Source of the DNA: a virus
Length of the DNA: 34,506 bases
IMG/VR virus record: IMGVR_UViG_3300025035_000001
Direction: 5' to 3' (one strand)
The notes below the pieces were generated by a model, which saw only the letters and a list, made by a program, of their open reading frames with translations, did no database searches and was not told the origin of the DNA. Within the stretch, counting starts at the first letter, position 1. The number at the start of each line of letters is the position of its first letter. This document shows positions 11,794 through 30,431 of the stretch, one piece after another. Position numbers and translations under genes: made by a program.

Positions 11794-12480
11794 ATGCAAG
11801 AAGTAATTAGAGGTACATGGACTCTTCCAGGAATCACCTATGCGATTAAAAATAATCTTGAAGCAGGATTAAAAGGAACTGCTAATTTTCCTTTTTCAAT
11901 TGAACAATTAGAAGCCGAAGTGATTGCAGAAAGAAATGCAGTAGTAGAACAGTTGAAACAATCTAATCTTCTTGGTGCAAGTGAATTATTTCAAGAAATA
12001 AACTGTGTTTCTTTAGATTGTGAAGATTTTGGATTATGTTGTGAAACATCCACTAAACAACCAACACTTCATTTTAAAGTACCGGTATTTGTTATACAAA
12101 ACTACACCGGTTTAGCTACTCAAACAAAACCTTTTTATATATATGAAGTAGGTAATACCAATTATTTATATCAGGATTATAAATCAAGTTATACTTCTCG
12201 TAAACCATATGTAGTATATAGATTGTACAATGGTGAAATGCACGGATTTATTTTTAATCCCCCCACACCAAATCTTAAAAAAATATCAGTAAGAGCTATT
12301 TTTGAAAATCCTTTAGCTGTTAATGGTTTTAAATGTTGTAGTTATAATGTTGAAACAGATAGATTTCCTGCTCCTAATTTTGTAATTCAACAGATTATTG
12401 TGAATATCACAAATCGTTGGGCATCATGGTATTATAGATTTCAAGGTCAGAAACCTAATAGTCAAACTCCTCAAGTATAA
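11794..12480 (+). CDS. Tail ring/structural protein
   Basis: SIEQLEAEVIAER...LFQEINCVSLDC...KPYV...IFNPP...ISVRAIFENP resembles crAss ring proteins. Synteny agrees. Confidence 0.6.
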   Translation: MQEVIRGTWTLPGITYAIKNNLEAGLKGTANFPFSIEQLEAEVIAERNAVVEQLKQSNLLGASELFQEINCVSLDCEDFGLCCETSTKQPTLHFKVPVFVIQNYTGLATQTKPFYIYEVGNTNYLYQDYKSSYTSRKPYVVYRLYNGEMHGFIFNPPTPNLKKISVRAIFENPLAVNGFKCCSYNVETDRFPAPNFVIQQIIVNITNRWASWYYRFQGQKPNSQTPQV

Positions 12481-13937: not shown

Positions 13938-16900
13938 ATGAGCGGTACAACCAATAGTTTTGAAGGAGGTTTACATTTAGATTATCCTGATTATCAAACA
14001 CCTAAAAATGTATATACTTTTGCCAACAATGCTACTTTTTTAACACATGAAGGGAATGAATTAATTTTGCAAAATGAAAAAGGTACAGTATATCAAAGTA
14101 GTCTTAAAGAAGATTACATAGCGGTTGCAGTAGCCGATTATACAGGTATTGCTTATATTATATCAGCACAAGTAATTAATAATGAATTTACAGGAAGAGG
14201 TGAAATAGGTACATTTCCAAGTCCTGATTATGCTAATAAAGTAGATGTTGATTGCACAGCTCAAGGGTGTAATTATGAAACAACGCTTATTCCTGAATAC
14301 CAAGCTTTTCAAAATTACAGTGGTGATAACGGTAATCCGATTAATTCTTTAATTGAAGTGGGTTATGGAGAATTTACTTCTGATTTGTTTAATTTTCAAA
14401 AAGATAAACCTGTTGAAATAGTCGCAACACAAACAAGTTATGATGGATCGGTAAATATCATTTTTACAGATAATTTTAATAAACCTAAACTTATAAACAG
14501 TCGATTTACAGTAAGACCTAATAATAAAGTTACTATTGTAAATAGAGCTGGTTCTAACGATACTAATTTATACGCTGTAGATAATTTTAATAATACACTT
14601 AATCACATCTTTAGTTCAAATAAATTAGCTACGGTTACCTTTGATGGTCAATCTACAGGTGGTGATTTAGCTACTGGACAATATCGTTATTTCTTTCAAT
14701 ATCTTACCGTAGACGGTAACGTAACTAATGTATTTGCTGAATCTTTCAACATTCCAGTATTTTTTGGTAATTCGGTTGCTACCACTCGTGGAGGATTACC
14801 AAATGAAAACACAGACAAAAGTAACAAATTAACGATTCATAATATTGACCAAGCTTATTCAAGTATTAGAGTATATTTTCAATATTCCGCAGGAACAGTA
14901 GGTGCGGATGCACAACAAACCGTTTATAAAATAGAGGAAGAATATGACATAAAAGGAACAGAAGTCACAATTACCCATAGTGGTTTTGAAACAATTACCG
15001 CAGTAGAAAACGCAGAACTTTCTTTAGATTTTTCTTTAATCAACACTTATAGAACAGGTTGTGAAATAAAAAGTAGATTAGCGGTTGGAAATATTAAACT
15101 TCGTCAGTACGATGTAAACATATTATTTGATTTCGCTAAAAAGATTAAAGTATTTGAAACCGAAAAGAAAATGACAATTCCTGGTTTTGATACGGATAAA
15201 AATCATTCTAACATTTATTCAAATATTGCTTATGATGCTGTTCAACGAGACACTTTTGTTGGGGGTTACTATAACCCTCGCAACGTACACGATAATCTTG
15301 GCTATTGGGGTGGTGAAACCTATATGTTTGGAGTCACATTTATATTCGAAGATGGAGCGTATTCTCCTGTTATTCCTATTCGGGGTATCGACAATTTTAA
15401 CAATAACGCTGTTTATAACGATGCTAACCTTTTTATAGATGATGATTTTGATAAGACTACAGGTGAAAACATAAGAGGTGTTTATCGCTTTTCTCGAAGA
15501 ACCAAAAAAAATTATATTGTTACTTCAGCTTCTTCTTATGTTAATGTTTTATTAGCTGAATTTGAAATACCTCAATTACCACAAACTATTTTAGATTTAG
15601 GGGTTGTGGGTTATCGTTTTCATAGAAGTAGACGTAAGTTAGACTGTATAGGTCAAGGGGTATTAATTAATACTGTAATCATACCTACCGATGATGGCTT
15701 TGATTTTAGAGAACCTAAAGTTAATCCTAATTCTTCATTAGCCACTTATTACAAAGCAGGTTTTGATGAACCTATTGAAGGGTATACTGAAAACAATTCA
15801 AGATATATTCCAAGTTTTAACTATTTACTTGAAACCATTTCAAGAAAGAATAAAAGAGATAAAGACGATTCGACAGGACCGCATTCACCCTCTGTGGACA
15901 ATCAAGGTATAGAACCTGTTCAAATGTATGCGGGTGGGTACAATGGAGCAATTGAAAAATTTTGGTTTAATAAGAAGTTCGCCTTCCTTAGTCCCGACTT
16001 TATAGGTAATCCTGTTAATAACTCAAGACTTTTTAGTACTGATAGTTTTAGTTTTGAAAAACTAGGTGAATTTTATTCTATTTACGCTGTTCCGACGACT
16101 GTTCCTTTTAAAGTAGAAACCACTACCAAAGCACCTTGGGCAGAAAGAGATGTTAATCATTTAAGATATTTTTCTTTAATTAAACCAACCTCTTTTTTAC
16201 AAACACCTCTTAGTCCTTTTATTAAATGCAGTGCGGAATATGTAACAGGAGAGGTTACTTCTACTACTTCTCAAGGTTTTTCTTCAGCTACGGATATTTA
16301 CGCTAAGTTTAGGTATCAATTAGGTGAAGGTATTGTATTTGACGGAAAAACAAATTCTGCGGACACGGTTGATTATGGGTTGTTAAATTATATCTTTAAT
16401 GATTATGTTGGAATAACTACTGAAAACCCTTTTATTATTAATCCTAATTATCCGACTACGCTTCCTGTAAGCTCTACTTTTGTTTCTATTAATCAAACCA
16501 CTTACGATTTAGGAGCTACTACAGGAGCAGGTACTAAAGTAGATGGAGGTAGAGTAAATACTTTTAATTTCACTAACAATGTTACTACAGGAGATTACGC
16601 TTCCGTTTTAATTAATGTTTATAGAGGTTCAGGACCTAGAAATTTAGAACAACTTTCAGTACTTTATCAACCTGAAGGTGAAGCGTTTTTTCCGATTACT
16701 CAACCGTTATATGAAACAAACGCTCTTGCGAACGCTGTACAAGCTTCAGGAGTCAATGGAATCCTTCAAACGAAGCAAAACCTATCTAACAGTAAAGGTC
16801 GCTTAGAAGCCGCTAATGGTGATTGTTTTATTAATCTCACACATAGACGATTATTTTATTCGGGTCTGGATAGAAATGACCCGGGAATAGAAGTAGGTGT

Positions 16901-18470
16901 TACAGGAACAAATGTAGGTTACACAATAGCTTTCATTGCTGAATCTAATTACAATGTTGCAGGGCGTTACGAAAACTTTGCCAATGTTGCAGAACAAGCT
17001 AGAACATTTTACCCTTTTGAAGCTAGAAATCATAAAATAGCGGTTTCCACCTCTTCAGTTAAAGGAGAAGATGATAAATGGAGAATTGCTAGATCACTTG
17101 AAACAAAGCAATACAATACCGGATATGATAGCTTTGAAGGGGGTCGTAACTACGTAGCTATTTCTTCAAGATTACCTTTTATACAAAATCAATTTAACAC
17201 AAGAGTTTGGATTTCAGAGCCTTACACTTCGGCAAGTTTTGAAAATCAATACAGATTCTTTTTACCTTTAGCTTATAAAGATTACTCTCAAGAGTTTGGT
17301 GAAATCGTAAGTCTTAAATCACAAGGCGATGTGATTATAATGATTCAAGAATTTGGTATAACCGTTATTCCTGTTTCTCAAAGAATTGCACAGCAAGGAG
17401 ATAGTGCTGGAGCAGTATTTTTTGCTTCTTCAGATGTATTAGCTTCTGTAGATAATTCAATGGTCATTTCTACGTTACATGGCTCTCAGTGGCAGTTTTC
17501 AATAGTGTCTACTGATAACTATACTTACGGTGTTGATTTAAACACGAGTAAGATATGGCGTACTAGAGGACAAAGTCTTGAGTTAATATCAGATGTAAAA
17601 ATTCAAAGTTTCTTGCGTAAAATTCGTAAACAATATGACAATCAAGAATATGAATGGTTTTTTAGACAAGTTCGTACCTACTACGACAAACGTAGAGGTG
17701 ATGTTATTTTCACATTTGCCGCTACCGCTGAAGGGGATGTTTGCGGTACTTCTATCATTACTATACCTTCACAGTGTATTAACATTAATGGAGATGAAAA
17801 CGGTATTATTCTTTCAGGAGGTGTACCTTTAAATACCGTAGAAGTACCTAATCTTTGTTATAATGATTCTATTTTCAATCTTGTGTATAATGAACAAATG
17901 AATCATTGGAAAACATTTAACAGTTGGTATCCTTCTAATATGTTTAGTATTTATGATGAAATATATAGTTTACCGCTTCTTGAAAAAAGAAATAAAATAT
18001 ATAAGCATTATGAAAACGATAAATACGCTTTTTATTACGACGAACAACATGATTTCATTGTTGAAATAAATGTAACATCGGATACAAAAATGCATCAAAC
18101 CTTTAATAACTTATTTCTTGTAACTAATGAGTTTTATCCTTATAAAATAGAATACACGACCAGTACTGGAACGGTTATTCAAGATATAAAACCTAGAAAC
18201 GTAGAGGGAAGAGGTGCTGAACCTTATCGGCAACAAGAATTAAACCCCATAGCCGTTTCTGATTTCGTATATAAAGAAGACCATTTATATGGTGAAATAA
18301 GACCGAATGATTGGAATCGACGAGAATATGTAGATAAATATGGTAACACCACATCTCTTCCTGAAAGAAGAGTAAGAGATAAATTTTGTAAAATTAGATT
18401 TTATTATAATACGAGCAATAATGTTTATATTCAACAGATTATAACTAACGTTAATCGAAGCTATAGTTGA
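13938..18470 (+). CDS. Muzzle / tail stabilisation protein (P22 gp10-like, crAss-type)
   Basis: 1510 aa. N-terminal NSFEGGLHLD...YTFANNATFLTHEGNELILQNEKG, then YDGSVNIIFTD...PKLINSRF, GYWGGETYMFGV, YKDYSQEFGEI and C-terminal RVRDKFCKIRFYY resemble the crAss stabilisation protein. Confidence 0.8.
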   Translation: MSGTTNSFEGGLHLDYPDYQTPKNVYTFANNATFLTHEGNELILQNEKGTVYQSSLKEDYIAVAVADYTGIAYIISAQVINNEFTGRGEIGTFPSPDYANKVDVDCTAQGCNYETTLIPEYQAFQNYSGDNGNPINSLIEVGYGEFTSDLFNFQKDKPVEIVATQTSYDGSVNIIFTDNFNKPKLINSRFTVRPNNKVTIVNRAGSNDTNLYAVDNFNNTLNHIFSSNKLATVTFDGQSTGGDLATGQYRYFFQYLTVDGNVTNVFAESFNIPVFFGNSVATTRGGLPNENTDKSNKLTIHNIDQAYSSIRVYFQYSAGTVGADAQQTVYKIEEEYDIKGTEVTITHSGFETITAVENAELSLDFSLINTYRTGCEIKSRLAVGNIKLRQYDVNILFDFAKKIKVFETEKKMTIPGFDTDKNHSNIYSNIAYDAVQRDTFVGGYYNPRNVHDNLGYWGGETYMFGVTFIFEDGAYSPVIPIRGIDNFNNNAVYNDANLFIDDDFDKTTGENIRGVYRFSRRTKKNYIVTSASSYVNVLLAEFEIPQLPQTILDLGVVGYRFHRSRRKLDCIGQGVLINTVIIPTDDGFDFREPKVNPNSSLATYYKAGFDEPIEGYTENNSRYIPSFNYLLETISRKNKRDKDDSTGPHSPSVDNQGIEPVQMYAGGYNGAIEKFWFNKKFAFLSPDFIGNPVNNSRLFSTDSFSFEKLGEFYSIYAVPTTVPFKVETTTKAPWAERDVNHLRYFSLIKPTSFLQTPLSPFIKCSAEYVTGEVTSTTSQGFSSATDIYAKFRYQLGEGIVFDGKTNSADTVDYGLLNYIFNDYVGITTENPFIINPNYPTTLPVSSTFVSINQTTYDLGATTGAGTKVDGGRVNTFNFTNNVTTGDYASVLINVYRGSGPRNLEQLSVLYQPEGEAFFPITQPLYETNALANAVQASGVNGILQTKQNLSNSKGRLEAANGDCFINLTHRRLFYSGLDRNDPGIEVGVTGTNVGYTIAFIAESNYNVAGRYENFANVAEQARTFYPFEARNHKIAVSTSSVKGEDDKWRIARSLETKQYNTGYDSFEGGRNYVAISSRLPFIQNQFNTRVWISEPYTSASFENQYRFFLPLAYKDYSQEFGEIVSLKSQGDVIIMIQEFGITVIPVSQRIAQQGDSAGAVFFASSDVLASVDNSMVISTLHGSQWQFSIVSTDNYTYGVDLNTSKIWRTRGQSLELISDVKIQSFLRKIRKQYDNQEYEWFFRQVRTYYDKRRGDVIFTFAATAEGDVCGTSIITIPSQCININGDENGIILSGGVPLNTVEVPNLCYNDSIFNLVYNEQMNHWKTFNSWYPSNMFSIYDEIYSLPLLEKRNKIYKHYENDKYAFYYDEQHDFIVEINVTSDTKMHQTFNNLFLVTNEFYPYKIEYTTSTGTVIQDIKPRNVEGRGAEPYRQQELNPIAVSDFVYKEDHLYGEIRPNDWNRREYVDKYGNTTSLPERRVRDKFCKIRFYYNTSNNVYIQQIITNVNRSYS

Positions 18471-18471: not shown

Positions 18472-19248
18472 ATGTATAAAAAATATAAAAAAAGCAGAGC
18501 TAAATTCATTAAACGTTCTCCCGGTGGTTCTATGGGTGGTTCTGATGCTATATCTGCGGGTTTAAGTTTTCTTGGTGATATGATTCCTGAATCGGATGTT
18601 TTAGAAAAAACAGGTAAAAGTTCAGCGATTAGTGATACCGTTAATGCCGCAGCGGTTCAAGGTTTAAATACGATTTTACCCGGTTCAGGTACGGCTTTGA
18701 ATATGTTAACAAAGACCACAGGTAATCTTAGAAAAACAAATTGTGTACCTGACCCTTCTTCACCAACAGGTGAAAAATGTTTTGAAGATGAAAAAGGAGC
18801 AGGGGAGGTAGTCGCAAACATTTTTGACCCTGGTAAGACCGCAGGAGATATGGTAGATGGTTTTACAACACTTTTTAAAGACCCTAAACAAGGAGCTAAA
18901 AAACTAGTCGATACTTTTACTTTTGGAATAACAAATTTTGATAAGTCCGAGGAAGATGCGTATGCGGAAGCTTTAAAAGAAGATAATCAAAGGAAAAAAA
19001 ACGAAAGATTTTCTAAAGTAAATACTCAAGCAAATAAAGACAAAATACTAGGGCAACAGTTAGGTGCTGCTCAGTTTCAAAGAAACACTCAAACGTATGC
19101 TAAGAAAGGAGGTTCTTTATTTAATCGATTAAAAAAAGGTGGAACGGTTAAAGACCGTTGTTATTATAAATGTAAAGCATCGTATAAAGTGTTTCCTTCT
19201 GCGTATGCTTCAGGTTGTATTGCAAAATGTAGAAAAAATAAATCATAA
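18472..19248 (+). CDS. Putative cargo/ejection protein fused to a small C-terminal basic 'PSAYAS' module
   Basis: Follows the muzzle gene. It has Gly/Ala-rich amphipathic segments. The C-terminal KDRCYYKCKASYKVFPSAYASGCIAKCRK resembles a small module common in aquatic phages and is separated from the rest by two KKGG motifs. Confidence 0.55.
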   Translation: MYKKYKKSRAKFIKRSPGGSMGGSDAISAGLSFLGDMIPESDVLEKTGKSSAISDTVNAAAVQGLNTILPGSGTALNMLTKTTGNLRKTNCVPDPSSPTGEKCFEDEKGAGEVVANIFDPGKTAGDMVDGFTTLFKDPKQGAKKLVDTFTFGITNFDKSEEDAYAEALKEDNQRKKNERFSKVNTQANKDKILGQQLGAAQFQRNTQTYAKKGGSLFNRLKKGGTVKDRCYYKCKASYKVFPSAYASGCIAKCRKNKS

Positions 19249-20486
19249 TGGTTAGAAAAACAGAAAAAGGTCTAGCTTTAAAACGTTGGTTTAAAGAAAA
19301 TTGGAAAGATGAGAAAGGTAATCCTTGTGGTTCTGATAAAAATAAAGATATTAAGAAATGTAGACCTACTAAGAAAGTTTCTAAAGACACGCCTGAAACT
19401 TGGAGTTCCATAAATAAACGAGGTGTGAAAGATGAAATAGTTAAACAAAAGAAAAACACAGGTATGGGAAATAGAACAGACTCAAGTAAAAATATTAAAA
19501 ATAAACAAGGTGGTAAAATGAATAAATCATTACAAGACCTATATCTTCCTAAACGTAAATTACAAAATAGTGGTATAATACAACCTGTAATTTCTCCAGC
19601 TTTACGTAAAGCAATGGAAGAATCTAAAACTAAATCCAAAGTTGCTGGACATAAACTTCCAATATATGAAGAACATTTAAATAGTCCTAATTATAAAGCA
19701 GCTACTAAAAACGCTAAAGAAATACAACAAGGTATTGAAAAAGGTGAAGTAGAAGCTATTCAACAAAAAGATGGAACATACCGATATGTAAGTACAGGTA
19801 AAGCAATTCCCGACGATACTCACGAAATGATTGCTACTTTAGGTGTTGGTGCAGTGGGTAAATTAGCAGCTAAAGAGGCAGGGAAAAAAATCATACCTCG
19901 TTTGGTAGATGCTGGAAAAGAAGGTTTAGAAGCATTAAGTAAACATTATGCTCCTAGAGATTTTGGACAAGGAGTAGCGTTAGGTGCAGATGTTATTAAC
20001 GATGCAACTAAAGGAAAATTTGATTTAGAAAAAGCTGTAATGTCAGCATTACGTATGGCACAAGCAGGTGTACCTGTATCAGGAGCTTTTGATAATAAAA
20101 TCGCTCAAGGTTTAGCGGATGCTACTTTAGGAAACAATAATCCTATTATTAAATTACTTTTACAATTACCTCCTAAATCTTTAGAAAAACTACCTGCTAT
20201 TAATCGATTTCTAAGAGGTAGTGGTATCACAAGTCAAATGAGTGGAGAAGGACAAGGTTCAAGATTAGATAGACCGATAAAAGAATTTGACCCATACACT
20301 CCAAAAAGAAAGTCTGATTCAAATAAATCTTTTATAGAAAAAATGCGTGAAAGTGCTGCGGAGCTACAAGAAAGCTTTAAAACAAATAGGGAAAACGCTA
20401 GAAAACGTTTAAATCTTAAAAAAAATGGTGGAACAATTATTCGTCAAAGATTAAGGCAACCTTTAAAAAATATTTATGAAATTTGA
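19248..20486 (+). CDS. Basic multi-module protein: N-terminal DUF5872-like 'LKRWFKENW' module plus an Ala/Gly-rich helical region (putative internal virion protein)
   Basis: GLALKRWFKENWKDEKGNPCG...KCRPTKKVSKDTPETW. KQGG lies at the module boundary and KNGG near the C-terminus. Confidence 0.55.
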   Translation: MVRKTEKGLALKRWFKENWKDEKGNPCGSDKNKDIKKCRPTKKVSKDTPETWSSINKRGVKDEIVKQKKNTGMGNRTDSSKNIKNKQGGKMNKSLQDLYLPKRKLQNSGIIQPVISPALRKAMEESKTKSKVAGHKLPIYEEHLNSPNYKAATKNAKEIQQGIEKGEVEAIQQKDGTYRYVSTGKAIPDDTHEMIATLGVGAVGKLAAKEAGKKIIPRLVDAGKEGLEALSKHYAPRDFGQGVALGADVINDATKGKFDLEKAVMSALRMAQAGVPVSGAFDNKIAQGLADATLGNNNPIIKLLLQLPPKSLEKLPAINRFLRGSGITSQMSGEGQGSRLDRPIKEFDPYTPKRKSDSNKSFIEKMRESAAELQESFKTNRENARKRLNLKKNGGTIIRQRLRQPLKNIYEI

Positions 20487-21252
20487 AAAGTTTGATATTG
20501 AAGGAACAATGATTCCTTTTTTCGGTATTTCTGATTCGTCTATGGAAGTCAAATTTAATAGAGTGGCTAGAATCGCTTCTCGATTTAATATTTGGAAAGA
20601 ACAGATGCAAAACTACGTATTACAGAATAACTCATCACCTACTTCTCAAGAATATAATCTTTCTGTTGCTTTTTTAATCATTATGTCGACAGGAATTAGA
20701 GTAGGTAATGAGAGTTCCGCAGAAGGTTTTTATTCAGACTATAAAGAAAAAGGTAAAACGGTTTTCGCACATACGTATGGTTTAACAACTCTCTTACCTG
20801 AACACGTTAGTGTTAAAAACGAAATCGTGTATTTTAATTTTACAGGAAAGAAACACGTTCAAAATACTTTTGAGTTAAGTTCTGATTTAAGTAAATTAGT
20901 AATTCCGGTTATTGAAAGTGGTTATTCGACTGTATTTAATATGGAAGAACCAGAACTAACTCGATTTGTGAAGCAACATACTTCTAAACATTTAAGTACG
21001 AAAGACTTTAGAACCTTTAGAGCTAATGTGTATGCTTTTGAATTTGGAAGCACCCAACCTAAATATATGTCTAAATCTGAAAGAAAAGATAGAATTAAAG
21101 ATACTGTTGAAAAAGTATCCCAACAATTAAACAATACTCCCGGTGTGGTTAAATCTTCTTATGTAGATAAACGATTGTTAGATTATCTTTTTCCTGAAGA
21201 GTTAATACCAAAAAAGAAACATGGGGGATTACTTAAACTTTATAAATTATGA
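20476..21252 (+). CDS. Type IB DNA topoisomerase, catalytic domain only (bacterial/poxvirus-like)
   Basis: Catalytic pentad present: R75 (GIRVGN), K125 (FTGKK), R179 (KDFRT), N220 (LNNTP) and Y229 (SYVD), plus the YGLTTL motif. The N-Y spacing of 9 equals vaccinia H265-Y274. Confidence 0.9.
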   Translation: MKFEKFDIEGTMIPFFGISDSSMEVKFNRVARIASRFNIWKEQMQNYVLQNNSSPTSQEYNLSVAFLIIMSTGIRVGNESSAEGFYSDYKEKGKTVFAHTYGLTTLLPEHVSVKNEIVYFNFTGKKHVQNTFELSSDLSKLVIPVIESGYSTVFNMEEPELTRFVKQHTSKHLSTKDFRTFRANVYAFEFGSTQPKYMSKSERKDRIKDTVEKVSQQLNNTPGVVKSSYVDKRLLDYLFPEELIPKKKHGGLLKLYKL

Positions 21253-21539
21253 TGTCATTATTGGAATTATACGGTTTAAATCAACTTAAAAAAGGTGGAA
21301 CAGTTGATAAAAAATCAATACCTTGTAACAAACCTAAACGTTTAGTAGGACACCCGACAAAAAAATTTATTGTAAAAGGTTGCGAGAATGGAAACGAGTC
21401 TATAGTTAGATTTGGTGACGCAAATATGAAGATAAAAAAAAATAATCCTAGAAGAAGAAAGTCATTTAGAGCTAGACACAATTGCAGTAATCCGGGTTCT
21501 AAATTAAAAGCTCGTTATTGGTCTTGCAAAAACTGGTAA
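21249..21539 (+). CDS. Small very basic protein of the 'VRFGD...RRKSFRARHNC...ARYWSC' family (putative DNA-binding internal head protein)
   Basis: This motif is widespread in aquatic phages, from memory. N-terminal LKKGGTV. Confidence 0.65.
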   Translation: MMSLLELYGLNQLKKGGTVDKKSIPCNKPKRLVGHPTKKFIVKGCENGNESIVRFGDANMKIKKNNPRRRKSFRARHNCSNPGSKLKARYWSCKNW

Positions 21540-21615
21540 TTATTTTATTTTAAATTAACCAAAAGGTCTTATATTTATAAGAAGTTTTATTTCATATCTT
21601 TTTAAACATAACATT

Positions 21616-21879
21616 ATGATTGCAAGAGCTATAGTAATAACTAATTATGATGAAATCGTTAATGCTGATAAAGAAGCACAACGTTTAGGATTAGACAAAA
21701 TGGGAATAAAACCCATTGAAGAAATCAGTGAAATCGGTTTTAATCTTGCAGATGTTTCAAGGTATTTAGCAATTCCTGCTACTGGCAAAATTGTAGTAGT
21801 ATTTAAAGATAGAACAGAAGAAGAATTTGAATTAGATGAACAGTTGTTAACATTACTTAGAAGTAAATTTAAAATATGA
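21616..21879 (+). CDS. Hypothetical protein
   Basis: 87 aa ORF with an AT-rich leader. ATGA overlap with the next gene. Confidence 0.65.
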   Translation: MIARAIVITNYDEIVNADKEAQRLGLDKMGIKPIEEISEIGFNLADVSRYLAIPATGKIVVVFKDRTEEEFELDEQLLTLLRSKFKI

Positions 21880-22919
21880 AACTATACGCAAAATATTTAA
21901 AACGACAAGACGGTGGAGATACCAAACCTGCTACTGTTTATGATACGTTTCCTAAAAAAATTAAAAAAGCTCTTGAAAAATCAGATAATATAAGTAAAAG
22001 TGTTACTGATATTCCTAATGGTTTTAGAACCACAGTATCTACGGCTAGTGGTAAACCTGGAAAAATTCATGAGCAAAGTATTGACCCAAACTCTTTAAAA
22101 GGTTCAGGTAAATACATAGGTGGTTGTACTACTGAGATAATGCGACCCTTAATACAAGCTTCTAAATCAATAGAATTACAAAATAAATTAGTTGCTCAAG
22201 GTATTGCTAAAATTGAAGACTATGGGAGTAGAAAGGTTATTACAAGTGTAAAGAATCCTAATTGTAAAATACCTTTAGAAAAATTTCAAGAACCCGGTTC
22301 AAGAGAAAGTGCTTTATTTACCCAAGAAATGAAGTTCGCAGGTAAAAAAGATATTGAAATGCCTATAGATATACCTAAAGGTAAATTAAGAAGAATACCT
22401 ATGCCTAAAGGAGAAGATAAGATACCAATACCGCAAGGTGAGTCAATGGAAAAAGAGGTTAACATTAATGTTTGGTTTAATCTAAAAGTACCGCACATGA
22501 CTAAAGGTGTTAAAGATTTAGGTAAAAGACAAGTACCGGTTACATTCTTAGTTCAGGTAGATAGAAAAGCAAATGATTTTAATAATTTGACAAAAAAAGA
22601 TGTGAGAATAAAAGTGGCATCAGTAGGAGCGATTGAAGCAGTAGGTACTAATAATGCTGCCGCTGCTTATCAAAGTGGTGGAGCATCAATAGATGTTGGT
22701 GATTTTCCCCTTGGTACTGGTGCAGTTACCGAAGCTGAAATAAGAAGTAAAATGAACATTATAGGACCTTTTATATTAGCTAAAATAAACGACGGAACGA
22801 TTAAAGCACGTGTTGGAAACGTAAAAGGGAACATTCCTTCTTTTCAAGATAGATTAAACCAAATAAGAAACTCTCGTAAAAGAGGTGGGACATTATTAAC
22901 CAAATATTTAAGTCGATGA
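21876..22919 (+). CDS. Hypothetical basic protein with xxGG motifs at both termini (putative cargo)
   Basis: 347 aa. KRQDGGD at the N-terminus, RKRGGTLL at the C-terminus, and an internal short Pro-rich repeat (IDIPKG/IPMPKG/IPIPQG). Confidence 0.6.
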   Translation: MKLYAKYLKRQDGGDTKPATVYDTFPKKIKKALEKSDNISKSVTDIPNGFRTTVSTASGKPGKIHEQSIDPNSLKGSGKYIGGCTTEIMRPLIQASKSIELQNKLVAQGIAKIEDYGSRKVITSVKNPNCKIPLEKFQEPGSRESALFTQEMKFAGKKDIEMPIDIPKGKLRRIPMPKGEDKIPIPQGESMEKEVNINVWFNLKVPHMTKGVKDLGKRQVPVTFLVQVDRKANDFNNLTKKDVRIKVASVGAIEAVGTNNAAAAYQSGGASIDVGDFPLGTGAVTEAEIRSKMNIIGPFILAKINDGTIKARVGNVKGNIPSFQDRLNQIRNSRKRGGTLLTKYLSR

Positions 22920-23311
22920 ACATATATGGATTTTCAGCACAAAGGAATAGAAATACCTCAAAAGGAAGAACTTTAAAAGACGGTGGTATTATTGCTGGAG
23001 GTGTAGCACACGCTGAAAATAATAATATTGGCGATAAAGGTATTCCTGTGGTATCGATTGAATCTTATAACACCAACAATGGAAAATATATTAAGTCTGA
23101 TAAACAAGTAGAAGTAGAATCTGAAGAGATTGTTTTCAATGAGGAAACGTCTTTGAAGATTAATAAGTTAGTAGAAGAATATAATACGTGTAAATGCGAA
23201 GGTAAATTAAGATTATTAGGTCAAGTTATACTTGAAGCTACTCGTAATCTTGTCGATGAAACATGTAGAACCAGTTGCAAATTTGAATCTAAATTACAAA
23301 AAATAAAATGA
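22916..23311 (+). CDS. Conserved crAss-like virion/cargo-associated protein ('KGIPVV...EVESEEIVF' family)
   Basis: GVAHAENNNIGDKGIPVV...QVEVESEEIVF...LLGQVILE. N-terminal LKDGGII. Confidence 0.55.
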   Translation: MNIYGFSAQRNRNTSKGRTLKDGGIIAGGVAHAENNNIGDKGIPVVSIESYNTNNGKYIKSDKQVEVESEEIVFNEETSLKINKLVEEYNTCKCEGKLRLLGQVILEATRNLVDETCRTSCKFESKLQKIK

Positions 23312-24183
23312 ACAATTTAAGAATTAAAAACCTTCATAAACGCTTGTTAAAAGCGGGTGGTAAAATCGTAAAAGAAGATAGCTATTTATTTAAAAATAAA
23401 AGAGCTGACGGTGGTGAGGTTAAAACACCTCCAAGAAAGGCATTATACGCTTTAGCTAACAAATTAGCGGACCAAAAAGTAGCTAGAAATGGCGGTACAC
23501 GAAATGATTATTTTATGGAAGCGATTAAGCACATTAAGGCTAATCCTGAAAGGTATCGAGAAGAACTGAGTAAATATGTTGATGAAACACCTATTTCAGT
23601 AAATAATGATATAGAAGATCCTGAAATTGTTTCAGGTATGACTCGTGGTGATTATTTAAACGCTGACGACAACACCCGAAAAAACATGGAGGAGTATGTT
23701 AACTATGGGCAGTATGGTGAAAACAATCAAGGTGCTGTAGATAAGAAAATAAATATTAAAAAACGTCAGATAATTACTGCGGCTTATAATAGAGCTATTC
23801 GAGAAGCTACTATCGCTAATAATAATAAACCGTTAAGTACTAAACAAATGCAAGAGATTTATAAAAAATTAATGGAAAGTCAAGCTGTACCTTCTTTTAA
23901 TATGGGAGGTATTATGGGTGCTGTAGGAAACGTTATGCAGAATCCTAATACGATGAATATGATGGGAGATATGATGTCTCAACAAGCGGAACGTAGAAAT
24001 CAAGCGGTAATGGCTTTAGGTGGGCAATTACGAATGAGGAGATTAGGTGGTTCTATCATTGGAGAAACAATGTTTAAAATCGCTGATAAAAATGCGGATT
24101 GGATTTATAATAATATGCAAGATTTAATCGGTGACGCGGTTTATAAAAACAATTTAGAAAGATTGTCAAGATTATCTCTGTAA
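23308..24183 (+). CDS. Hypothetical protein with multiple xxGG motifs and a Met-rich segment (putative cargo polyprotein)
   Basis: Contains LKAGGKI, RADGGEV, ARNGGT, FNMGGIM, MALGGQL and RRLGGSI. Confidence 0.6.
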   Translation: MNNLRIKNLHKRLLKAGGKIVKEDSYLFKNKRADGGEVKTPPRKALYALANKLADQKVARNGGTRNDYFMEAIKHIKANPERYREELSKYVDETPISVNNDIEDPEIVSGMTRGDYLNADDNTRKNMEEYVNYGQYGENNQGAVDKKINIKKRQIITAAYNRAIREATIANNNKPLSTKQMQEIYKKLMESQAVPSFNMGGIMGAVGNVMQNPNTMNMMGDMMSQQAERRNQAVMALGGQLRMRRLGGSIIGETMFKIADKNADWIYNNMQDLIGDAVYKNNLERLSRLSL

Positions 24184-24184
24184 T

Positions 24185-24679
24185 ATGTTTTACATTGGCG
24201 ATTCTGAAATACAAGGAAAAGGTGTTTTTATAGACCAAGATGTACCAAAAGGAATATGTCTTGGTCTTGCTCACACTTTAGAAGGTAATAAATTAACTCG
24301 TATTACTAAATTGGGTAAATTTCATAATCATTCAGTTTTTCCTAATTGTAAATCATTTAAAATAGGCAATAACCGTTATTTATTTAGTCTTAGAGATTTA
24401 GTAAAAGGGGAAGAAATAACCGTTGATTATAGAAAACAACCCGAATTAGAACAACCTAAAGAAAATTGGGATATGGCAAGATTATTATTACTCGACCATA
24501 ACGGTCAACCTCAAATGAAACTTGGAGGTAGAGAAATTGTATTTTCAAGAGTTTCAACAAAAAAGATTTTAGATTTAGCTGAAAAAGCAAGTGATGGAGA
24601 TAATCGAGATATTTTAGCTTTAGGTAAGTTCGTTTATCAAGAAAGAATGAAACAAAAGAAAAGAGACAAAGAAATTTAA
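24185..24679 (+). CDS. Minimal SET-domain protein-lysine methyltransferase fused to a C-terminal 'EIVF' helical domain
   Basis: SET motifs: SEIQGKGVF (GxG), FHNHSVFPNC (NHS) and RDLVKGEEITVDY. No pre- or post-SET Cys clusters. Confidence 0.85.
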   Translation: MFYIGDSEIQGKGVFIDQDVPKGICLGLAHTLEGNKLTRITKLGKFHNHSVFPNCKSFKIGNNRYLFSLRDLVKGEEITVDYRKQPELEQPKENWDMARLLLLDHNGQPQMKLGGREIVFSRVSTKKILDLAEKASDGDNRDILALGKFVYQERMKQKKRDKEI

Positions 24680-24725
24680 TTTTTTGTATATTTAATTTAT
24701 ACAGTCACCTATAAAAACAACGATA

Positions 24726-25037
24726 ATGATTACGTTTAATAATAGAAACACAAATAAAGTTGTAATCCCAGCTAGAGTGCTAGGATTACGTCAAGAAGGA
24801 GGGGAGTTGATAGAATCAGGAGAACCTGCGGCTGCGGAAGCTCAAGACCCTATGATGGACATCTTAAATATGGCAATGCAAGCAGTGGAAGAGCAAGATC
24901 CTGAAACGGCTATGCAAGTTTGCGTAATGCTAGTAGAAATAGCAGGTGGAGGTGAAGAAGCTTCTATGGAAGAAGAATCAATGGAAGAAATGCCTACAGA
25001 TGAAGAAATGGGTTACGGTGGAATGATGGATTACTAG
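24726..25037 (+). CDS. Small acidic Met-rich protein (crAss-like conserved 'QDP...AMQVC' family), flanked by xxGG motifs
   Basis: RQEGGEL...QDPMMDILNMAMQAVEEQDPETAMQVC...MGYGGMM. Confidence 0.6.
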   Translation: MITFNNRNTNKVVIPARVLGLRQEGGELIESGEPAAAEAQDPMMDILNMAMQAVEEQDPETAMQVCVMLVEIAGGGEEASMEEESMEEMPTDEEMGYGGMMDY

Positions 25038-25042: not shown

Positions 25043-25807
25043 ATGGAGGAGATTATAAAGCAACTAGATGGGCAGCTTATACTCCTTTATACTACATTTA
25101 TCGGTATTATAATTTTCTTTTTAAGAGACGGTTCAAAACTATTATTTTCTTTTTTAACGGATGTGTTAAAACATTGGTGGCATTTAAAAAAAGAAGAATT
25201 GACATTAGAAGCTAAAGTTAGAAATTCTAAAGTTGCAGCTTTTTCAGAGATGGAAATTCAAAGATTGAAAACTGAAACTCCGTTAATAAAAGATGTTATT
25301 TACCTAAGTGATACATTAAAGGAGCTTAGAGATTATTTAAACGCTTTTAGAATAACGATATATATATTCCATAACGGAACAGCTAAGTTTTTTAAAAATT
25401 ATTCAGGGAGACATCAAGATTGTAGAAATATTGTAGATAGACATTTAAGTAATTATCAAAATAAACCACTGTCTACTTTATATCCAATTATAAATTATTG
25501 TGTTAATCAAACAATTACCATATTTGATGAGAATACTGAATTTGAATATATAAGACATCTTATTCTTAATTCAAAAACTAAAATCAACGTTATTTTTTTA
25601 ATTATAATTGATTCTGAAAAAATTGAAAATTCTCATAATATAATAAGCGTTAAAACAAACAAAGGTATATCGATTCCTTTAGGGTTTGTAAGTATTGAAC
25701 TTGATGAAGATTCTTTAATGTTGACAGAGACCATTATAAGCTATATTAAGTCTTTTAAACAAACGATTGAAACATCATACACTAACTCGCCTGAAATATT
25801 CGGATGA
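25043..25807 (+). CDS. Putative holin (T4 T-like: one N-terminal TM helix plus a GAF-like domain)
   Basis: Hydrophobic LILLYTTFIGIIIFFL, then LKELRDYLNAFRITIYIFHNG...YQNKPLS...LGFVSIE. Confidence 0.6.
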   Translation: MEEIIKQLDGQLILLYTTFIGIIIFFLRDGSKLLFSFLTDVLKHWWHLKKEELTLEAKVRNSKVAAFSEMEIQRLKTETPLIKDVIYLSDTLKELRDYLNAFRITIYIFHNGTAKFFKNYSGRHQDCRNIVDRHLSNYQNKPLSTLYPIINYCVNQTITIFDENTEFEYIRHLILNSKTKINVIFLIIIDSEKIENSHNIISVKTNKGISIPLGFVSIELDEDSLMLTETIISYIKSFKQTIETSYTNSPEIFG

Positions 25808-25865
25808 AAACAAAAAAAACAAAACACACTGACGAAGATTGTGGGTGTAGCAAAAATAAAAACGT

Positions 25866-26282
25866 ATGGCAACAATACAACAATTAGATAGAACCAACGA
25901 TTTATTGTCGCAAATTTGGGTTAAATTAACGACAAATGAAGGTGAGTCATACCCTATACTTGTAGATATTGAAACAAACACTCAAACAACAGCGAGTAAT
26001 ACCACACAATCTGCTTCAGATATTACTGCAATTGCTTTAAATATCGACTCTATTAAAACAACAATTGAAGCTTTAAACGATAGACATATTTTAGAAAATT
26101 GGGATTTGATTGTAGGTAACAGTAAAGTAACTACTTATTATACAGGTGTTGCGGTTGGAAATCCCAGTGGTTCAACAGATAATGCTGAAACAATACAGTA
26201 TAATCAAGGAGCTTCTACCGTATTGACTCAGACTTATACATGGAATATTGATAATAAACCTATAAGTATAACAGCATCGTAA
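25866..26282 (+). CDS. Putative virion structural protein
   Basis: Thr-rich, with a short coiled coil and a C-terminal beta segment (TIQYNQGASTVLTQTYTW...ISIT). Confidence 0.5.
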   Translation: MATIQQLDRTNDLLSQIWVKLTTNEGESYPILVDIETNTQTTASNTTQSASDITAIALNIDSIKTTIEALNDRHILENWDLIVGNSKVTTYYTGVAVGNPSGSTDNAETIQYNQGASTVLTQTYTWNIDNKPISITAS

Positions 26283-26330
26283 ATGAAATTTTCTATAAAT
26301 TATACAACTAAAATTTAAAAAACCTGCAAA

Positions 26331-26988
26331 ATGTCAAACAAGTATAAGTATAACATATTTACTGGAAAGTTAGATTTAGTAGGACGAGAGTATCCTGAAT
26401 TAGAAGATTTTTTTAAAAACACAAATTGTTACATACACTATATATGAAATAATTATAGGAGATACCTTATCAGGAAGTGTTGCGGTGCAAACAGGAATTG
26501 AAATAATAAGAGATAGTTTTCAAGGAGCTGATTTAAATCTTTCTAAATTAGGTGGAGACCTTTTCCCTACTGGAGTAGGTGTTGAAGATACGTTAGGTAA
26601 TCCTGTTTTTGCAACATTTAACCCTATAGACACTCCACCAAATTGGCAAATTAATACTTCAGATACTAATGGAGAAGACTATGCTTTGATATTTAGAGTA
26701 AGAAGTACTAGAGGTAATCTTACTACTTATTTAAAAAATAACCCTGAATACTTTTTATCTAGTGAAACACAAACTATTGATAATGATACTACATGGATTG
26801 AATATGTTGCTAATTATGAACCTTCAATTCAAATTTCAATTACAGGAGGACTTGTGATTCAATATGATAATCAAAAAGAAACTGTTTATAGATTTGTACC
26901 TGACCCTTATATCTATAATCAAGATAGTATTTATAGAAATTTCAATGGGGTCAGTTTAACAAATTTAATCACCTCAAGAACTAATTAA
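26331..26988 (+). CDS. Fibre-associated structural gene split by a +1 frameshift at T7A5 (26408-26419); 38-aa upstream ORF 26331..26447 plus the downstream frame
   Basis: ATG at 26331 gives MSNKYKYNIFTGKLDLVG, a typical phage fibre N-terminal motif. The frame of the listed ORF 26485..26988 is open from 26404. Removing one T gives a continuous 218-aa protein (...ELEDFLKTQIVTY...). Confidence 0.65.
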
Positions 26989-26992
26989 AATT

Positions 26993-27382
26993 ATGATAAT
27001 TAATCAGACTATCTCAAATTTAAAAGAAAACGGGGTTGAGTTCAATCCACCTATTTATCGACAAGTAAAATCAGCAATGTTACAATGTTTTTATGATAAC
27101 GATAATGAAATAGCTGAAGTTATAGTTACTTGTGATGTAAGACATTATACGGATGTTGAAATGACTAAGGCTTGGGGATTTAATCCAAGAGTAGTAAAAA
27201 ATCTTCATATAAAAGATACTTTTACAGTAGATAAAACAACAGGTGTTAGAGCAACAGAAGACACCCTTGAAGAAAATAAAATGGGAGAGCTTACTTTCTT
27301 TGTAGACTATTCTCAAATGGTGATAAGACAAGGTGTAGCCGCAGGTGTTTACTTAGCTGATATTAACCATAGATTTGATTAA
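26993..27382 (+). CDS. Hypothetical protein, possible tail fibre assembly chaperone
   Basis: 129 aa ORF lying between fibre-like genes. Confidence 0.5.
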   Translation: MIINQTISNLKENGVEFNPPIYRQVKSAMLQCFYDNDNEIAEVIVTCDVRHYTDVEMTKAWGFNPRVVKNLHIKDTFTVDKTTGVRATEDTLEENKMGELTFFVDYSQMVIRQGVAAGVYLADINHRFD

Positions 27383-27384
27383 TT

Positions 27385-27927
27385 ATGGTAGCTACTCCAA
27401 TTTCTAAAGTAGTATCTCCTCAAATTATAGGAGATGTGAAATACGGATTTCAGACTTCTGATCATAACGGTTGGATAAAATTAGACGGTAGACCTTTTGA
27501 TCTACTAACTGATGGGTTAACACCTACTCAAAGAGATGCTGCTATCAGTATAGGTTTTTTTTCCGCATTACCGAACGCAACAAATTCTTTTCTACAACAA
27601 AATACTAATCCAATCGGTGAAGTATTTGGTAGCAACTCTAAAATTATAAATAGAGATAACTTACCCAATGTAACATTAAGCGGTACTACTAATGGATCTG
27701 GAGACCATGTTCATTCTTATGAGAGAAGAACTCAAAACAGAGATGTAAACGGTATAGGAGGTGTGGGAGTTAGTGGTCAAAGTACTTCTACTTTTAATAC
27801 TTCCGTAGCAGGAGGTCATACTCATACAATTACAACCGAAAGTTTAAATGGTAATATTACTCAAGAAGAACTTGACATAACTCCAAGAACATTATCAATA
27901 AATGTTTTTTTATTTTTAGGTGATTAA
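27385..27927 (+). CDS. Short tail fibre protein with a tail-collar domain and His-x-His tip motifs
   Basis: IIGDVKYG...DHNGWIKLDGR...LPN collar pattern; GDHVHS and GGHTHT metal-binding fibre motifs; C-terminal ITPRTLSINVFLFLG. Confidence 0.75.
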   Translation: MVATPISKVVSPQIIGDVKYGFQTSDHNGWIKLDGRPFDLLTDGLTPTQRDAAISIGFFSALPNATNSFLQQNTNPIGEVFGSNSKIINRDNLPNVTLSGTTNGSGDHVHSYERRTQNRDVNGIGGVGVSGQSTSTFNTSVAGGHTHTITTESLNGNITQEELDITPRTLSINVFLFLGD

Positions 27928-27938
27928 TATATTTTAAA

Positions 27939-29015
27939 ATGGCTAACGAATTAAACTATTACGGAAACCTAAGTCAAACAGGGCTTACAGTTATAGCAAG
28001 AGTATATGACGCAACAGGAACTCAAGTAGGCTTGGATATATCTTGTACTGAAGACACTGGTTCTTTAGCTATTTATTCTGGAGATATGCCTACTGCACCA
28101 TTAGGTGTATACGGGGTTCGTTTTTTTGATGGTTCTACTTTATTAGGTCAAGGAAGTATAAATTGGAGTGGTCTTAAAGAAACGGATTTAATTATTACTG
28201 ATAATGGACTTTTAAACAAAGTAATTTACTTTAATCCTTCAGCCTCTGTTAATGGTGACGGTACAAACAGTAATCCATTTAACAACCTTGCAGATGTTAT
28301 TACTAAATCTGACAATGAAGGCATTGAAACTATAAAAGTTACTTCTGGAAACTTTTTTACTCTTTCACAATCATGTATAGGTAAAAAATTTAAAGGAACA
28401 GGCTATGCTATAAACTTAGGTAATCAAGATATAACTGATTCAGAATTTGAAAATGCGTATATATCAGGCGTAGGAACAGCTACGTTAAATAGATTCGTTA
28501 CTTTTAGAGACTGTGTTTTAGGAAGAACTTTAACTTCTGCGAATATTACAACTATCCCAGCGGGTATTTTTTACAATTGTTCAATTGTTATTGTTAACAT
28601 ATCCTCTGTAGGTTTTTACGAATTTATTGATTGTTATAGTGGGAGAGGAGCTTCTCTACCTCTTATTAATTTTCTTTCTGTTTCAGGTATTACTGTTTCT
28701 CTTAGAAGATACTCTGGAAATATGTTTGCAAGAAATTTAGTCGCTGGGTCAGTTATCGTTTTAGATAGCACAAGTGGAGATGTTTTTAGAATTACTGGAA
28801 CGGGTGGAACAGCGATACTCACAGGTATGATTGGCAGAGTTGATGATTTTTCTGGAGGTAATGTAGGCATTGGTTCAAACTCTTTAGTGAATAAAGTTGA
28901 TTTAGCTTTAGAAACTACTCAAGTAGAGATGAAAGAAAATCAAATCACGTTAAACGAAGGAATTAAAAACAGTAGCTTATTAATCCCATATACTGATAAT
29001 TTACCAAATATTTAA
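27939..29015 (+). CDS. Putative tailspike-like protein with a beta-helix region
   Basis: IYFNPSASVNGDGTNSNPFNNLADVI is a typical beta-helix cap and is followed by short repeated beta strands (FRDC, FYNC, FIDC). Confidence 0.55.
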   Translation: MANELNYYGNLSQTGLTVIARVYDATGTQVGLDISCTEDTGSLAIYSGDMPTAPLGVYGVRFFDGSTLLGQGSINWSGLKETDLIITDNGLLNKVIYFNPSASVNGDGTNSNPFNNLADVITKSDNEGIETIKVTSGNFFTLSQSCIGKKFKGTGYAINLGNQDITDSEFENAYISGVGTATLNRFVTFRDCVLGRTLTSANITTIPAGIFYNCSIVIVNISSVGFYEFIDCYSGRGASLPLINFLSVSGITVSLRRYSGNMFARNLVAGSVIVLDSTSGDVFRITGTGGTAILTGMIGRVDDFSGGNVGIGSNSLVNKVDLALETTQVEMKENQITLNEGIKNSSLLIPYTDNLPNI

Positions 29016-29025
29016 TACAGTTAAA

Positions 29026-30428: not shown

Positions 30429-30431
30429 TGC

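Follow-up and report, generated by a model that had tools for sequence, protein, structure and literature searches.

The internal proteins of phage T4 carry an N-terminal capsid targeting sequence that is cut at Leu/Ile-x-Glu by the prohead protease gp21. This short portable peptide sends unrelated proteins into the head and in that respect is like the Gly-Gly tag described here, which is found in a short, T4-like N-terminal leader in six of the ten proteins of one gene block. However, the T4 signal is N-terminal only and has a known protease, whereas copies in the window (the whole 34,506-nucleotide stretch of DNA that was analysed) are also C-terminal and internal, and their cutting is a supposition. 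The cargo-loading peptides of encapsulins are short, disordered and uncut. Located at the C or N terminus of unrelated enzymes, to which they are joined by a flexible linker, they bind the inside of an HK97-fold shell. Their consensus differs from that of the tag, proteins usually bear a single copy, and the shell is no phage and ejects nothing; homology to the tag is not implied.

In phiKZ-like phages, gp175 processes inner-body and head proteins at Ser/Ala/Gly-x-Glu. As with the tag, one short motif is present on many unrelated internal proteins at N-terminal and internal positions, but its sequence is different, its cleavage is proven and the protease is identified. A Gly-Gly core after a hydrophobic residue, on proteins bound for a particle or for export, is also known from the adenovirus protease sites Met/Leu/Ile-x-Gly-Gly-x, the Gly-Gly-x sites of ASFV pS273R, and the double-glycine bacteriocin leaders cut by C39 peptidases. 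In the tag, by contrast, the hydrophobic residue is located one position further upstream, and there are copies at extreme C-termini as well. Polyvalent proteins of phages and conjugative elements, reportedly described by Iyer et al. in 2017, resemble the block in that exchangeable payload modules are strung together and travel with the DNA. However, that concept includes no conserved junction peptide, and in the window the string is broken into single genes.

The window is from a crAss-like phage, and two landmark genes are located upstream of the block:

11794..12480, + strand, tail ring protein 2 homologue (Pfam PF25702 CrAss_Ring_2, E 1.3e-10)
13938..18470, + strand, muzzle gene (tail gatekeeper), landmark directly 5' of the block (Pfam PF25731 crAss_MUZ, E 1.2e-45)

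The ring protein homologue confirms the presence of a crAss-type tail module. The muzzle gene product has 30% identity to that of the gut crAss-like phage MT835470 and 23% to that of Flavobacterium phage Fpv1 (tblastn). One base past the end of the muzzle gene begins a block of ten ORFs:

18472..19248, + strand, P1, 258 aa, GG at aa 18, 22, 213 and 223
19248..20486, + strand, P2, 412 aa, DUF5872 (PF19197) at aa 4-70, GG at aa 88 and 394
20476..21252, + strand, P3, 258 aa, type IB topoisomerase (PF01028, E 1.1e-17), GG at aa 250
21249..21539, + strand, P4, 96 aa, phrog_7595 at aa 21-96, GG at aa 16
21616..21879, + strand, P5, 87 aa, zero GG
21876..22919, + strand, P6, 347 aa, motif-type GG at aa 13 and 337 (both ends)
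22916..23311, + strand, P7, 131 aa, leader with tag, then a conserved module of about 100 aa
23308..24183, + strand, P8, 291 aa, six GG, at aa 17, 35, 62, 200, 238 and 247
24185..24679, + strand, P9, 164 aa, SET-domain protein (PF00856 at aa 36-82), GG at aa 114
24726..25037, + strand, P10, 103 aa, acidic, GG at aa 25 and 98

In Bacteroides phage crAss001, the genes downstream of the muzzle gene encode the virion cargo proteins C1 and C2 (PMC10172136). The best explanation for the ten post-muzzle ORFs is that they are a split version of a crAss-type cargo operon, and from gene position alone their products are probably packed inside the particle and injected. There is no match to Pfam cargo families among the ten proteins. 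The payload set predicted from sequence consists of a type IB topoisomerase, a SET methyltransferase, small basic Cys modules and proteins without assigned function.

The consensus order of the motif is basic, hydrophobic, basic, x, Gly, Gly, x, hydrophobic. Nine of the ten proteins are tagged, with one to four copies each, and the copies (eight residues, positions -4 to +2) are located as follows:

18511..18534, + strand, P1 N-terminal copy
19096..19119, + strand, P1 copy, first of double seam
19126..19149, + strand, P1 copy, immediately 5' of Cys module
19497..19520, + strand, P2 copy after DUF5872
20415..20438, + strand, P2 C-terminal copy
21211..21234, + strand, P3 topoisomerase C-terminal copy
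21282..21305, + strand, P4 N-terminal copy
21900..21923, + strand, P6 N-terminal copy
22872..22895, + strand, P6 C-terminal copy
22970..22993, + strand, P7 N-terminal copy
23344..23367, + strand, P8 N-terminal copy, first
23398..23421, + strand, P8 N-terminal copy, second
23893..23916, + strand, P8 internal copy, weaker, without basic residue
24007..24030, + strand, P8 copy, first of C-proximal double seam
24034..24057, + strand, P8 copy, second of C-proximal double seam
24512..24535, + strand, P9 copy, border of SET and C-terminal module
24786..24809, + strand, P10 N-terminal copy
25005..25028, + strand, P10 C-terminal copy

There are 25 GG dipeptides in the ten block proteins (2147 aa) versus 13.9 in composition-preserving shuffles (P=0.0008), and 54 versus 45.4 in the other 25 ORFs (8963 aa). 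The pattern [KR]-x(0-2)-GG-x-[ILVMFT] is observed 23 times in the block versus 1.9 expected, a count reached by none of 5000 shuffles, and four times versus 3.3 expected in the rest of the window. Because this pattern was picked post hoc, after inspection of the block, replication was sought in a related phage, G001 (105.6 kb). A pattern derived from the window is found 10 times in its post-muzzle block versus 1.28 expected (Poisson 1e-6), four times versus 1.6 in its giant-protein block, and four times versus 3.0 in its other 94 proteins; enrichment in G001 is confined to the post-muzzle block. Profiled by position, 120 GG sites from the cargo-type proteins of six phages exhibit hydrophobic residues at -3 (47%) and +2 (59%) versus a 30% background, and basic residues at -2 (31%) and -4 (28%) versus 16%. 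No such position pattern is present at 152 GG sites in neighbouring non-cargo proteins.

Eleven of the 18 copies are located within 40 aa of a terminus, where 37% would be expected (P=0.03), and the remaining copies mark borders between modules: downstream of DUF5872, in front of the Cys-rich module, and at the junction of SET with the C-terminal module. Compared all against all by BLAST, the ten proteins show no paralogy beyond the motif (best E 0.2). At the DNA level, similarity is limited to three copies (73-83% over 30 nt), and the Gly codons vary (GGT 21, GGA 9, GGG 4). The motif is real and portable, selection acts on the peptide, and the motif goes with the crAss-like cargo context, in which it occupies termini and the borders of modules. 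The 17 copies given by the sequence-only reading and the ambiguous one in the SET protein are all where it placed them. Its figure of nine tagged proteins in ten also stands (ORF 21616-21879 is the exception), as do the terminal or border placement, the conservation at the protein level on unrelated proteins, and the recurrence in other crAss-like phages.

P1 begins with a basic leader that holds a double GG and ends with a double seam followed by a Cys-rich module (aa 167-256, matching phrog_727 and phrog_38880), which in the related locus L006 is an ORF of its own with 52 aa that starts M-G-G. The N-terminal DUF5872 module of P2 is followed 18 aa downstream by a seam, and a second tag is C-terminal. 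The P3 tag lies 8 aa from the protein end, and the P4 tag closes a 17-aa leader in front of a small basic Cys module. P5, the sole block protein without a motif copy, has no family match and is preceded directly by the only intergenic gap in the block (76 nt). P6, whose GG at aa 82 and 268 fall outside the motif, gave no lead in Pfam, PHROG or ESM Atlas. In P8, two GG are located in the N-terminal leader and a double seam lies toward the C-end, and P10 carries one tag near its N terminus and the other 5 aa from its C-end; its orthologues retain the N-terminal copy in L006 and MT835470, and the C-terminal copy in L006.

Two families illustrate how modules and tags are combined. The P7 module was found in 16 relatives, either free-standing or as the C-terminal part of larger proteins, and in most members a hydrophobic-basic-x-GG peptide is located upstream of it, separated by a spacer of 0-18 variable residues. 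An AF2 model of P7 has pLDDT <50 for residues 1-29, followed by a folded module. In P9, the seam links the SET domain to a C-terminal module of about 50 aa. Residues 98-163 have two counterparts, a free-standing 80-aa ORF of L006 and the C-terminal end of a 188-aa MT835470 ORF, which has a different N-terminal part that reads by eye like DUF192; the GG is kept in all three.

The tag behaves as an add-on among homologues. Of the 30 closest type IB topoisomerases, 21 carry it at the N-end, the C-end or both, in contrast to none of 89 distant homologues. These terminal tags persist on either end at 44-64% identity, and some of the proteins end only 2-4 residues past the GG, which fits a self-contained terminal docking motif and would make cutting there pointless. 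Among the fetched loci, tags are confined to the crAss-like clade (the window and L004-L008), with none in about 95 others, a redundant set with fewer distinct sequences. The P4 module in Roseobacter phage CRP-235 and Pelagibacter phage Kolga is a bare 79 aa without leader or GG, and outside crAss-like phages the same modules have other linkers or none. The same enzymes are untagged outside the crAss-like cargo context, and such natural controls fit an added label. Fusion and fission also occur at seams. Seams flank the topoisomerase inside a 1044-aa protein of L005; in L004 it is the first part of a 764-aa fusion, whose neighbouring ORFs end in seams. In L006, one ORF stops exactly at GG and two begin M-G-G. 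The placement of the motif at termini and borders holds for fused and split modules alike, and its retention on single-module proteins indicates that it is more than a joint.

The cargo proteins C1 (gp45) and C2 (gp46) of crAss001 offer a structural comparison (Bayfield et al. 2023, PMC10172136; PDB 7QOG and others). Their genes are also directly 3' of the muzzle gene, and the first protein likewise has a basic N-terminal leader followed by GG. However, they have no detectable sequence or fold similarity to the block proteins, the cargo is two large proteins rather than ten small ORFs that include enzymes (TopIB, SET), and the motif flavour is Ala-Phe/Tyr-GG rather than Leu/basic-x-GG. Two structurally resolved pieces of gp45 are bracketed by GG seams. 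The portal-bound piece was modelled by cryo-EM as one continuous segment, 425-552, and its own seam (425-428), the one seam within resolved density in crAss001, therefore lies in that segment. The seam preceding the tail-bound helix (207-210) is absent from the density, such that ordered docking of the motif itself is not observed. In a peptide-mass re-reading of the 2018 crAss001 spectra, gp45 was undetected in ten gel bands above ~54 kDa, and the portal protein, of similar copy number, was detected. This hints weakly that gp45 might migrate at less than its full length, although the bands covered are blind to fragments.

Our tentatively favoured reading is that the tag may be an uncut peptide that serves as dock and hinge and directs varied payloads into the virion. 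It draws on the shuffle tests, the G001 replication and the cargo-only profile; on the block position right after the muzzle gene, as for the crAss001 cargo genes; on the add-on behaviour in the topoisomerase family, the fetched loci and the bare P4 module; on the continuous gp45 model across 425-428; on the disordered P7 tag region, as is usual for short linear motifs; on the lack of hits to four control-backed protease families in five related records; and on the location of fusion and fission points. The receptor and its binding are what we infer, the virion presence of the ten proteins is read from gene order alone, and a protease site would explain the conservation over about eight residues just as well.

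A processing site, as the sequence-only reading also proposed, now seems doubtful. An unrecognised phage protease, or a host protease, would cut at or beside GG, trim leaders and tails from the two ends, and divide fused cargo into its modules, much as T4 gp21 and phiKZ gp175 process internal head proteins and adenain cuts at x-G-G. The short conserved stretch agrees with this, as do leaders of 7-30 aa with the motif at their end, which resemble the targeting leaders of T4; double seams 5-18 aa apart would free short peptides, the L006 ORFs that end or start at GG are what a cleavage boundary might predict, modules function just as well when encoded separately, and full-size gp45 was not seen in the re-read bands. 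However, searches with a working control for Ulp1/C48, HK97 S78, C39 and ClpP proteases found none in the five related records, nor did searches for adenain C5 and T4 S77, which had no positive control, and no scanned window ORF matches a peptidase family. The hydrophobic residue is at P5, whereas adenain, PLpro and double-glycine leaders have it at P4, and neither the tags close to a C-end nor the continuous gp45 model favours cutting. An unlikely alternative is a passive joint, a preferred linker or turn connecting modules that fold independently, with no recognition partner and with terminal copies as remnants of gene fission. This would account for the coincidence of seams with fusion and fission points, the disorder in P7 and its family's variable spacers. 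Yet plain linkers are not expected to hold a fixed eight-residue pattern across phages at 23-50% protein identity, terminal copies persist in topoisomerases up to the very C-terminus, and elsewhere the same modules have other linkers or none.

It is quite improbable that short hydrophobic peptides past GG at facing gene ends pair with each other, such that separately made proteins (for example, through the P3 C-tail and P4 leader) leave the particle as one train. Similar Leu/Tyr-rich peptides do face each other at P3|P4, P5|P6 and P6|P7, but they may just be adjacent copies of the same motif; many junctions (P1|P2, P2|P3, P8|P9) have a tag on one side only, and some topoisomerases have N-only or C-only tags. 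An artefact of Lys/Gly-rich composition, a DNA repeat or Shine-Dalgarno-like GGNGG internal start signals is scarcely credible. Lys+Arg content is 14-25% in the block proteins except the acidic P10 (4%), three copies are alike as DNA, and four have Met at +2. However, this explanation is refuted by the shuffles, the DNA divergence of most copies, the replication in relatives, and the rarity of SD-like upstream sequences (2 of 35 genes), which indicates a phage that does not use such signals.

We found no published description of such a Gly-Gly tag, for which encapsulin cargo targeting peptides and the T4 capsid-targeting sequence are the nearest analogies. New here are the split of the block into separate genes that still keep the tag at their ends, the tagging of close but not of distant topoisomerase homologues, the leaderless P4 module of non-crAss phages, and the enrichment in the G001 post-muzzle block. 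The portability claimed by the sequence-only reading stands, given the add-on pattern in homologues, and the packaging that it proposed is probable from gene position. Perhaps the motif works uncut: a short peptide with a Gly-Gly hinge would dock onto an internal virion component that recognises it during assembly, with the portal, tail rings, muzzle and capsid inner face as candidate receptors. Any module bearing the motif would be recruited to the cargo zone, stay there as a flexible bead and be threaded out afterwards. The tag looks like a portable label of proteins that are packed and injected by the phage.

Judged by sequence, the window belongs to a crAss-like phage and includes a Crassvirales-type virion module, an assignment that comes from the matches of two of its genes to the muzzle family PF25731 and the tail ring family PF25702. 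The long ORFs are all located on the + strand and the G+C content is approximately 32%. The features that could be assigned are listed below.

Annotated features of the window and of the block products P1 to P10, which are numbered in gene order
11794-12480, + strand: tail ring protein 2, upstream of the muzzle gene (PF25702 CrAss_Ring_2, E 1.3e-10)
13938-18470, + strand: muzzle protein, crass fold (PF25731, E 1.2e-45)
P1, C-terminal end: small basic Cys-containing module, found in many marine phages
P2: N-terminal DUF5872
20476-21252: P3, type IB topoisomerase (catalytic core PF01028, E 1.1e-17)
P4, entire protein: small basic Cys-containing module, found in many marine phages
24185-24679: P9, SET domain

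The nearest catalogued relatives of the window are MT835470 from the gut and the group of Flavobacterium phage Fpv1, with a muzzle protein that is only 23-30% identical. There was no match when 13 kb of the window was compared with phage records by megablast, nor when the muzzle was used as a single-protein locus query against IMG/VR. A PHROGs search with the ten ORFs that open the window, ahead of the tail ring genes, gave 0 matches. An ORF at 2858-4909 encodes a Cys-rich protein of 683 aa with DUF5977 (PF19404, E 2.8e-18).

P1 starts at position 18472, one base past the muzzle stop, and thus occupies the same post-muzzle place as the cargo genes of crAss001. Past its muzzle gene, that phage encodes C1 and C2, which are cargo proteins, followed by its virion RNA polymerase (PMC10172136). 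In the window, the cargo position is filled by ten small ORFs (the block, 18472-25037), and there is no virion RNA polymerase gene directly after them. The ORFs past the block (25043-34504) are rich in Gly, Thr and Ser, contain repeated segments of the 'T-G-G-D-G-I' type, and are tail-fibre-like in look.

There is no family match for P5, P6, P7, P8 or P10, and the ESM Atlas yielded no lead for P6 or P8. Pfam cargo families do not match any block protein, even at E values up to 5, and neither does crAss001 gp45 (C1) by BLASTP or hhalign. The block therefore has its gene position in common with C1 and C2 whereas a sequence match is absent, and the word cargo refers here to gene position, basic composition and a shared motif, on which grounds the ten products are presumed cargo. 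Foldseek gives no match at E<=0.001 for an AF2 model of P7 (pLDDT 65), whose best VIA score (Z 4.2) is to unrelated helical chains. A by-eye likeness suggested that P7 is the portal-binding domain of gp45, an idea that had no support from BLASTP, hhalign, Foldseek or VIA-align, nor from a profile search of the PDB. Searches with two degenerate DNA patterns of the P7 core gave either no match or only chance matches and an already known contig.

Apart from a Gly-Gly peptide of about eight residues (the motif, also called the tag or seam), the ten block proteins are unrelated to one another. The sequence-only reading had placed this peptide on nine of them as a portable signal for capsid sorting, protease cutting or both, and every copy that it listed lies where it had been located. 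There are 25 GG dipeptides in the block compared with 13.9 in shuffles. The enrichment over shuffled sequence on which the earlier proposal depended also holds, since the pattern basic-x(0-2)-GG-x-hydrophobic occurs 23 times in the block versus 1.9 expected, and the other 25 ORFs equal expectation. Because this pattern was defined after inspection, it was retested as derived from the window on the 105.6-kb contig of L006, the closest architectural relative. It was found there 10 times in the post-muzzle block versus 1.28 expected, and 4 times versus 3.0 expected in the other 94 proteins.

A profile over 120 GG sites, pooled from the cargo-type proteins of six phages, reads basic (-4), hydrophobic (-3), basic (-2), any residue, G, G, any residue, hydrophobic (+2), with no conservation beyond these limits. 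At 152 GG sites in neighbouring proteins outside the cargo set there is no positional pattern. The motif lies in the first 35 aa of 6 of the 10 block proteins, which resembles the T4 capsid targeting sequence, likewise an N-terminal leader on unrelated internal proteins; the T4 leader is taken off by a prohead protease of the phage. Other copies are internal or C-terminal. We rejected an origin in DNA repeats, as the conservation is not at that level, and also one in Shine-Dalgarno-like internal starts, as SD-like sequence is found at only 2 of 35 genes. A literature search revealed no published account of the motif, nor of the processing of cargo in crAss-like phages. The motif is a real, conserved and portable stretch of eight residues that marks the presumed payload proteins of crAss-like phages.

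Several N-terminal leaders encoded at 15276-16968 of L006 have a longer common consensus ahead of the GG, consisting of Leu-Gly-Leu/Tyr and then aromatic-Gln-x-GG, and Leu-Gly-Leu is also present in the P10 leader (24726-24809 of the window), so that lineage-specific extended forms of the tag may exist. P5 (21540-21879 including the gap) is the sole untagged block protein and is preceded by the sole intergenic gap of the block, which is 76 nucleotides long. Its C-terminal residues are like the Leu-rich tails that follow the GG in neighbouring proteins, except that the GG is missing. P5 may be a non-cargo helper.

Homologues that carry the tag can be compared with homologues that do not. A search found 540 homologues of the P3 topoisomerase, with 35 invariant columns kept in their alignment. 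The motif is present at either or both termini in 21 of the 30 closest (44-64% identity), and in some the C-terminus is only two to four residues past the GG. None of 89 more distant homologues has it. Among the fetched topoisomerase loci, tags are confined to a crAss-like clade comprising the window and the related loci L004-L008, and a muzzle gene is near the tagged enzyme in the window, L006 and L007/L008. Approximately 95 other loci, a redundant set with fewer distinct sequences, include 0 that are tagged and 0 with a muzzle gene in view. A metagenome scan with the topoisomerase alignment found only distant, untagged homologues, which serve as controls, and no new cargo blocks. Similarly, Roseobacter phage CRP-235 and Pelagibacter phage Kolga encode P4 homologues of 79 aa that have no leader, and a leader with a seam-type GG precedes only 4 of the best 120 database homologues of P4, the window's own included. 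It follows that the tag is an add-on, accompanying the cargo context and kept by proteins of a single module.

At the N-terminus, many P4-type modules of other marine phages (database proteins P0142-P0167 and others) are extended in a different way, by an acidic amphipathic helix and a run of Lys after it. In P0148 this extension joins the Cys-rich 'SAYASG' module to that of the P4 type. It may represent a junction or tag of an analogous kind outside the crAss-like phages.

The same modules are fused in some phages and split in others. The topoisomerase of L005 is embedded in a protein of 1044 aa, flanked by seams at residues 544 and 819/831 and ahead of a P4-like end, and that of L004 is the head of a 764-aa fusion, while in L006 and L007, as in the window, the enzyme has a gene to itself. 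L006 encodes the C-terminal module of P9 as an ORF of its own, 80 aa long, and in MT835470 the module is joined to another N-terminal part; its GG is kept in all three, the window included. The P7 module either stands alone or forms the C-terminal part, in proteins of 116-518 aa, and the motif is nearly always ahead of it, with 0-18 variable residues between. Gene borders fall within or beside seams; in L006, two ORFs begin M-G-G and one ends exactly at G-G.

These observations permit three readings of the motif. It could be a passive joint between modules, as the position of gene borders might suggest, and this we consider rather improbable. The addition of the tag in a cargo context and its retention by single-module proteins point to a function in recognition and not to a plain joint. 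The most likely reading, which we adopt tentatively, is that the motif is an uncut peptide for addressing that also acts as a hinge. The seams of crAss001 gp45 are at 207-210, 330-333, 425-428 and 559-563, and its portal-bound piece is modelled as residues 425-552 (PMC10172136) and therefore runs through its own seam at 425-428. In the AF2 model of P7, the leader and tag are disordered, which is compatible with a cut or an uncut peptide.

That the motif is a protease site seems unlikely, even with a conservation that is short and asymmetric around the GG, a leader-like architecture, and the L006 ORF that ends at GG. Also in its favour is a re-reading of the published 2018 crAss001 gel by peptide-mass fingerprinting (spectra from PMC6235969 supplement file 14), in which gp45, at 91 kDa within the size range, was not identified in bands 1-10, all larger than the three smallest bands (11-13), where fragments might run. 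Bands 3-9 correspond to gp47/50, gp49, gp20, gp26/22, gp22/25, gp25 and gp23, and RNA polymerase subunits, muzzle, portal and tail proteins were identified at sensible sizes. Besides the gp45 model, cleavage is opposed by tags at extreme C-termini and by the hydrophobic peak at -3 from the first Gly. This is site position P5, with a basic residue at site position P4 (-2), whereas adenain and Ulp1-type sites have the hydrophobic residue at P4. Double-glycine leaders, which are cut by C39 proteases, are N-terminal only, whereas the motif is also internal and C-terminal. Protease families were searched for in five related phage records, which include the complete crAss001 and two others that are at least 95% complete. 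There was no match to C39, C48 (PF02902, clan CE), S78 or ClpP with working controls; searches for C5 (PF00770, also clan CE) and S77 in the same records were empty but lacked a positive control.

What is new from this window is the split-gene architecture together with the tagged and untagged enzyme controls, making it the clearest natural experiment so far, in which genes for single enzymes are tagged at their ends and the same enzymes elsewhere are not. One possibility, about which we remain doubtful, is that the Gly-Gly peptide is a loading code of crAss-like phages, with a stronger version in which an unrecognized protease also trims the tag. If there is such a code, any protein gaining an end of the form basic-hydrophobic-basic-x-GG-x-hydrophobic would be recruited into the particle and injected, which would explain the constant swapping of the topoisomerase, the SET methyltransferase and other payload enzymes in and out of the cargo operon. 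The stronger version would amount to an adenovirus-like Gly-Gly maturation system in tailed phages. P3 and P9, if packaged, would bring an enzyme that relaxes DNA and a lysine methyltransferase into the host alongside the phage DNA. crAss-like phages, the most abundant viruses of the human gut, are also common in marine waters. A portable cargo tag would make testable how they choose and load megadaltons of injected protein, would permit payload prediction from sequence alone, and would account for the rapid shuffling of modules in these operons.
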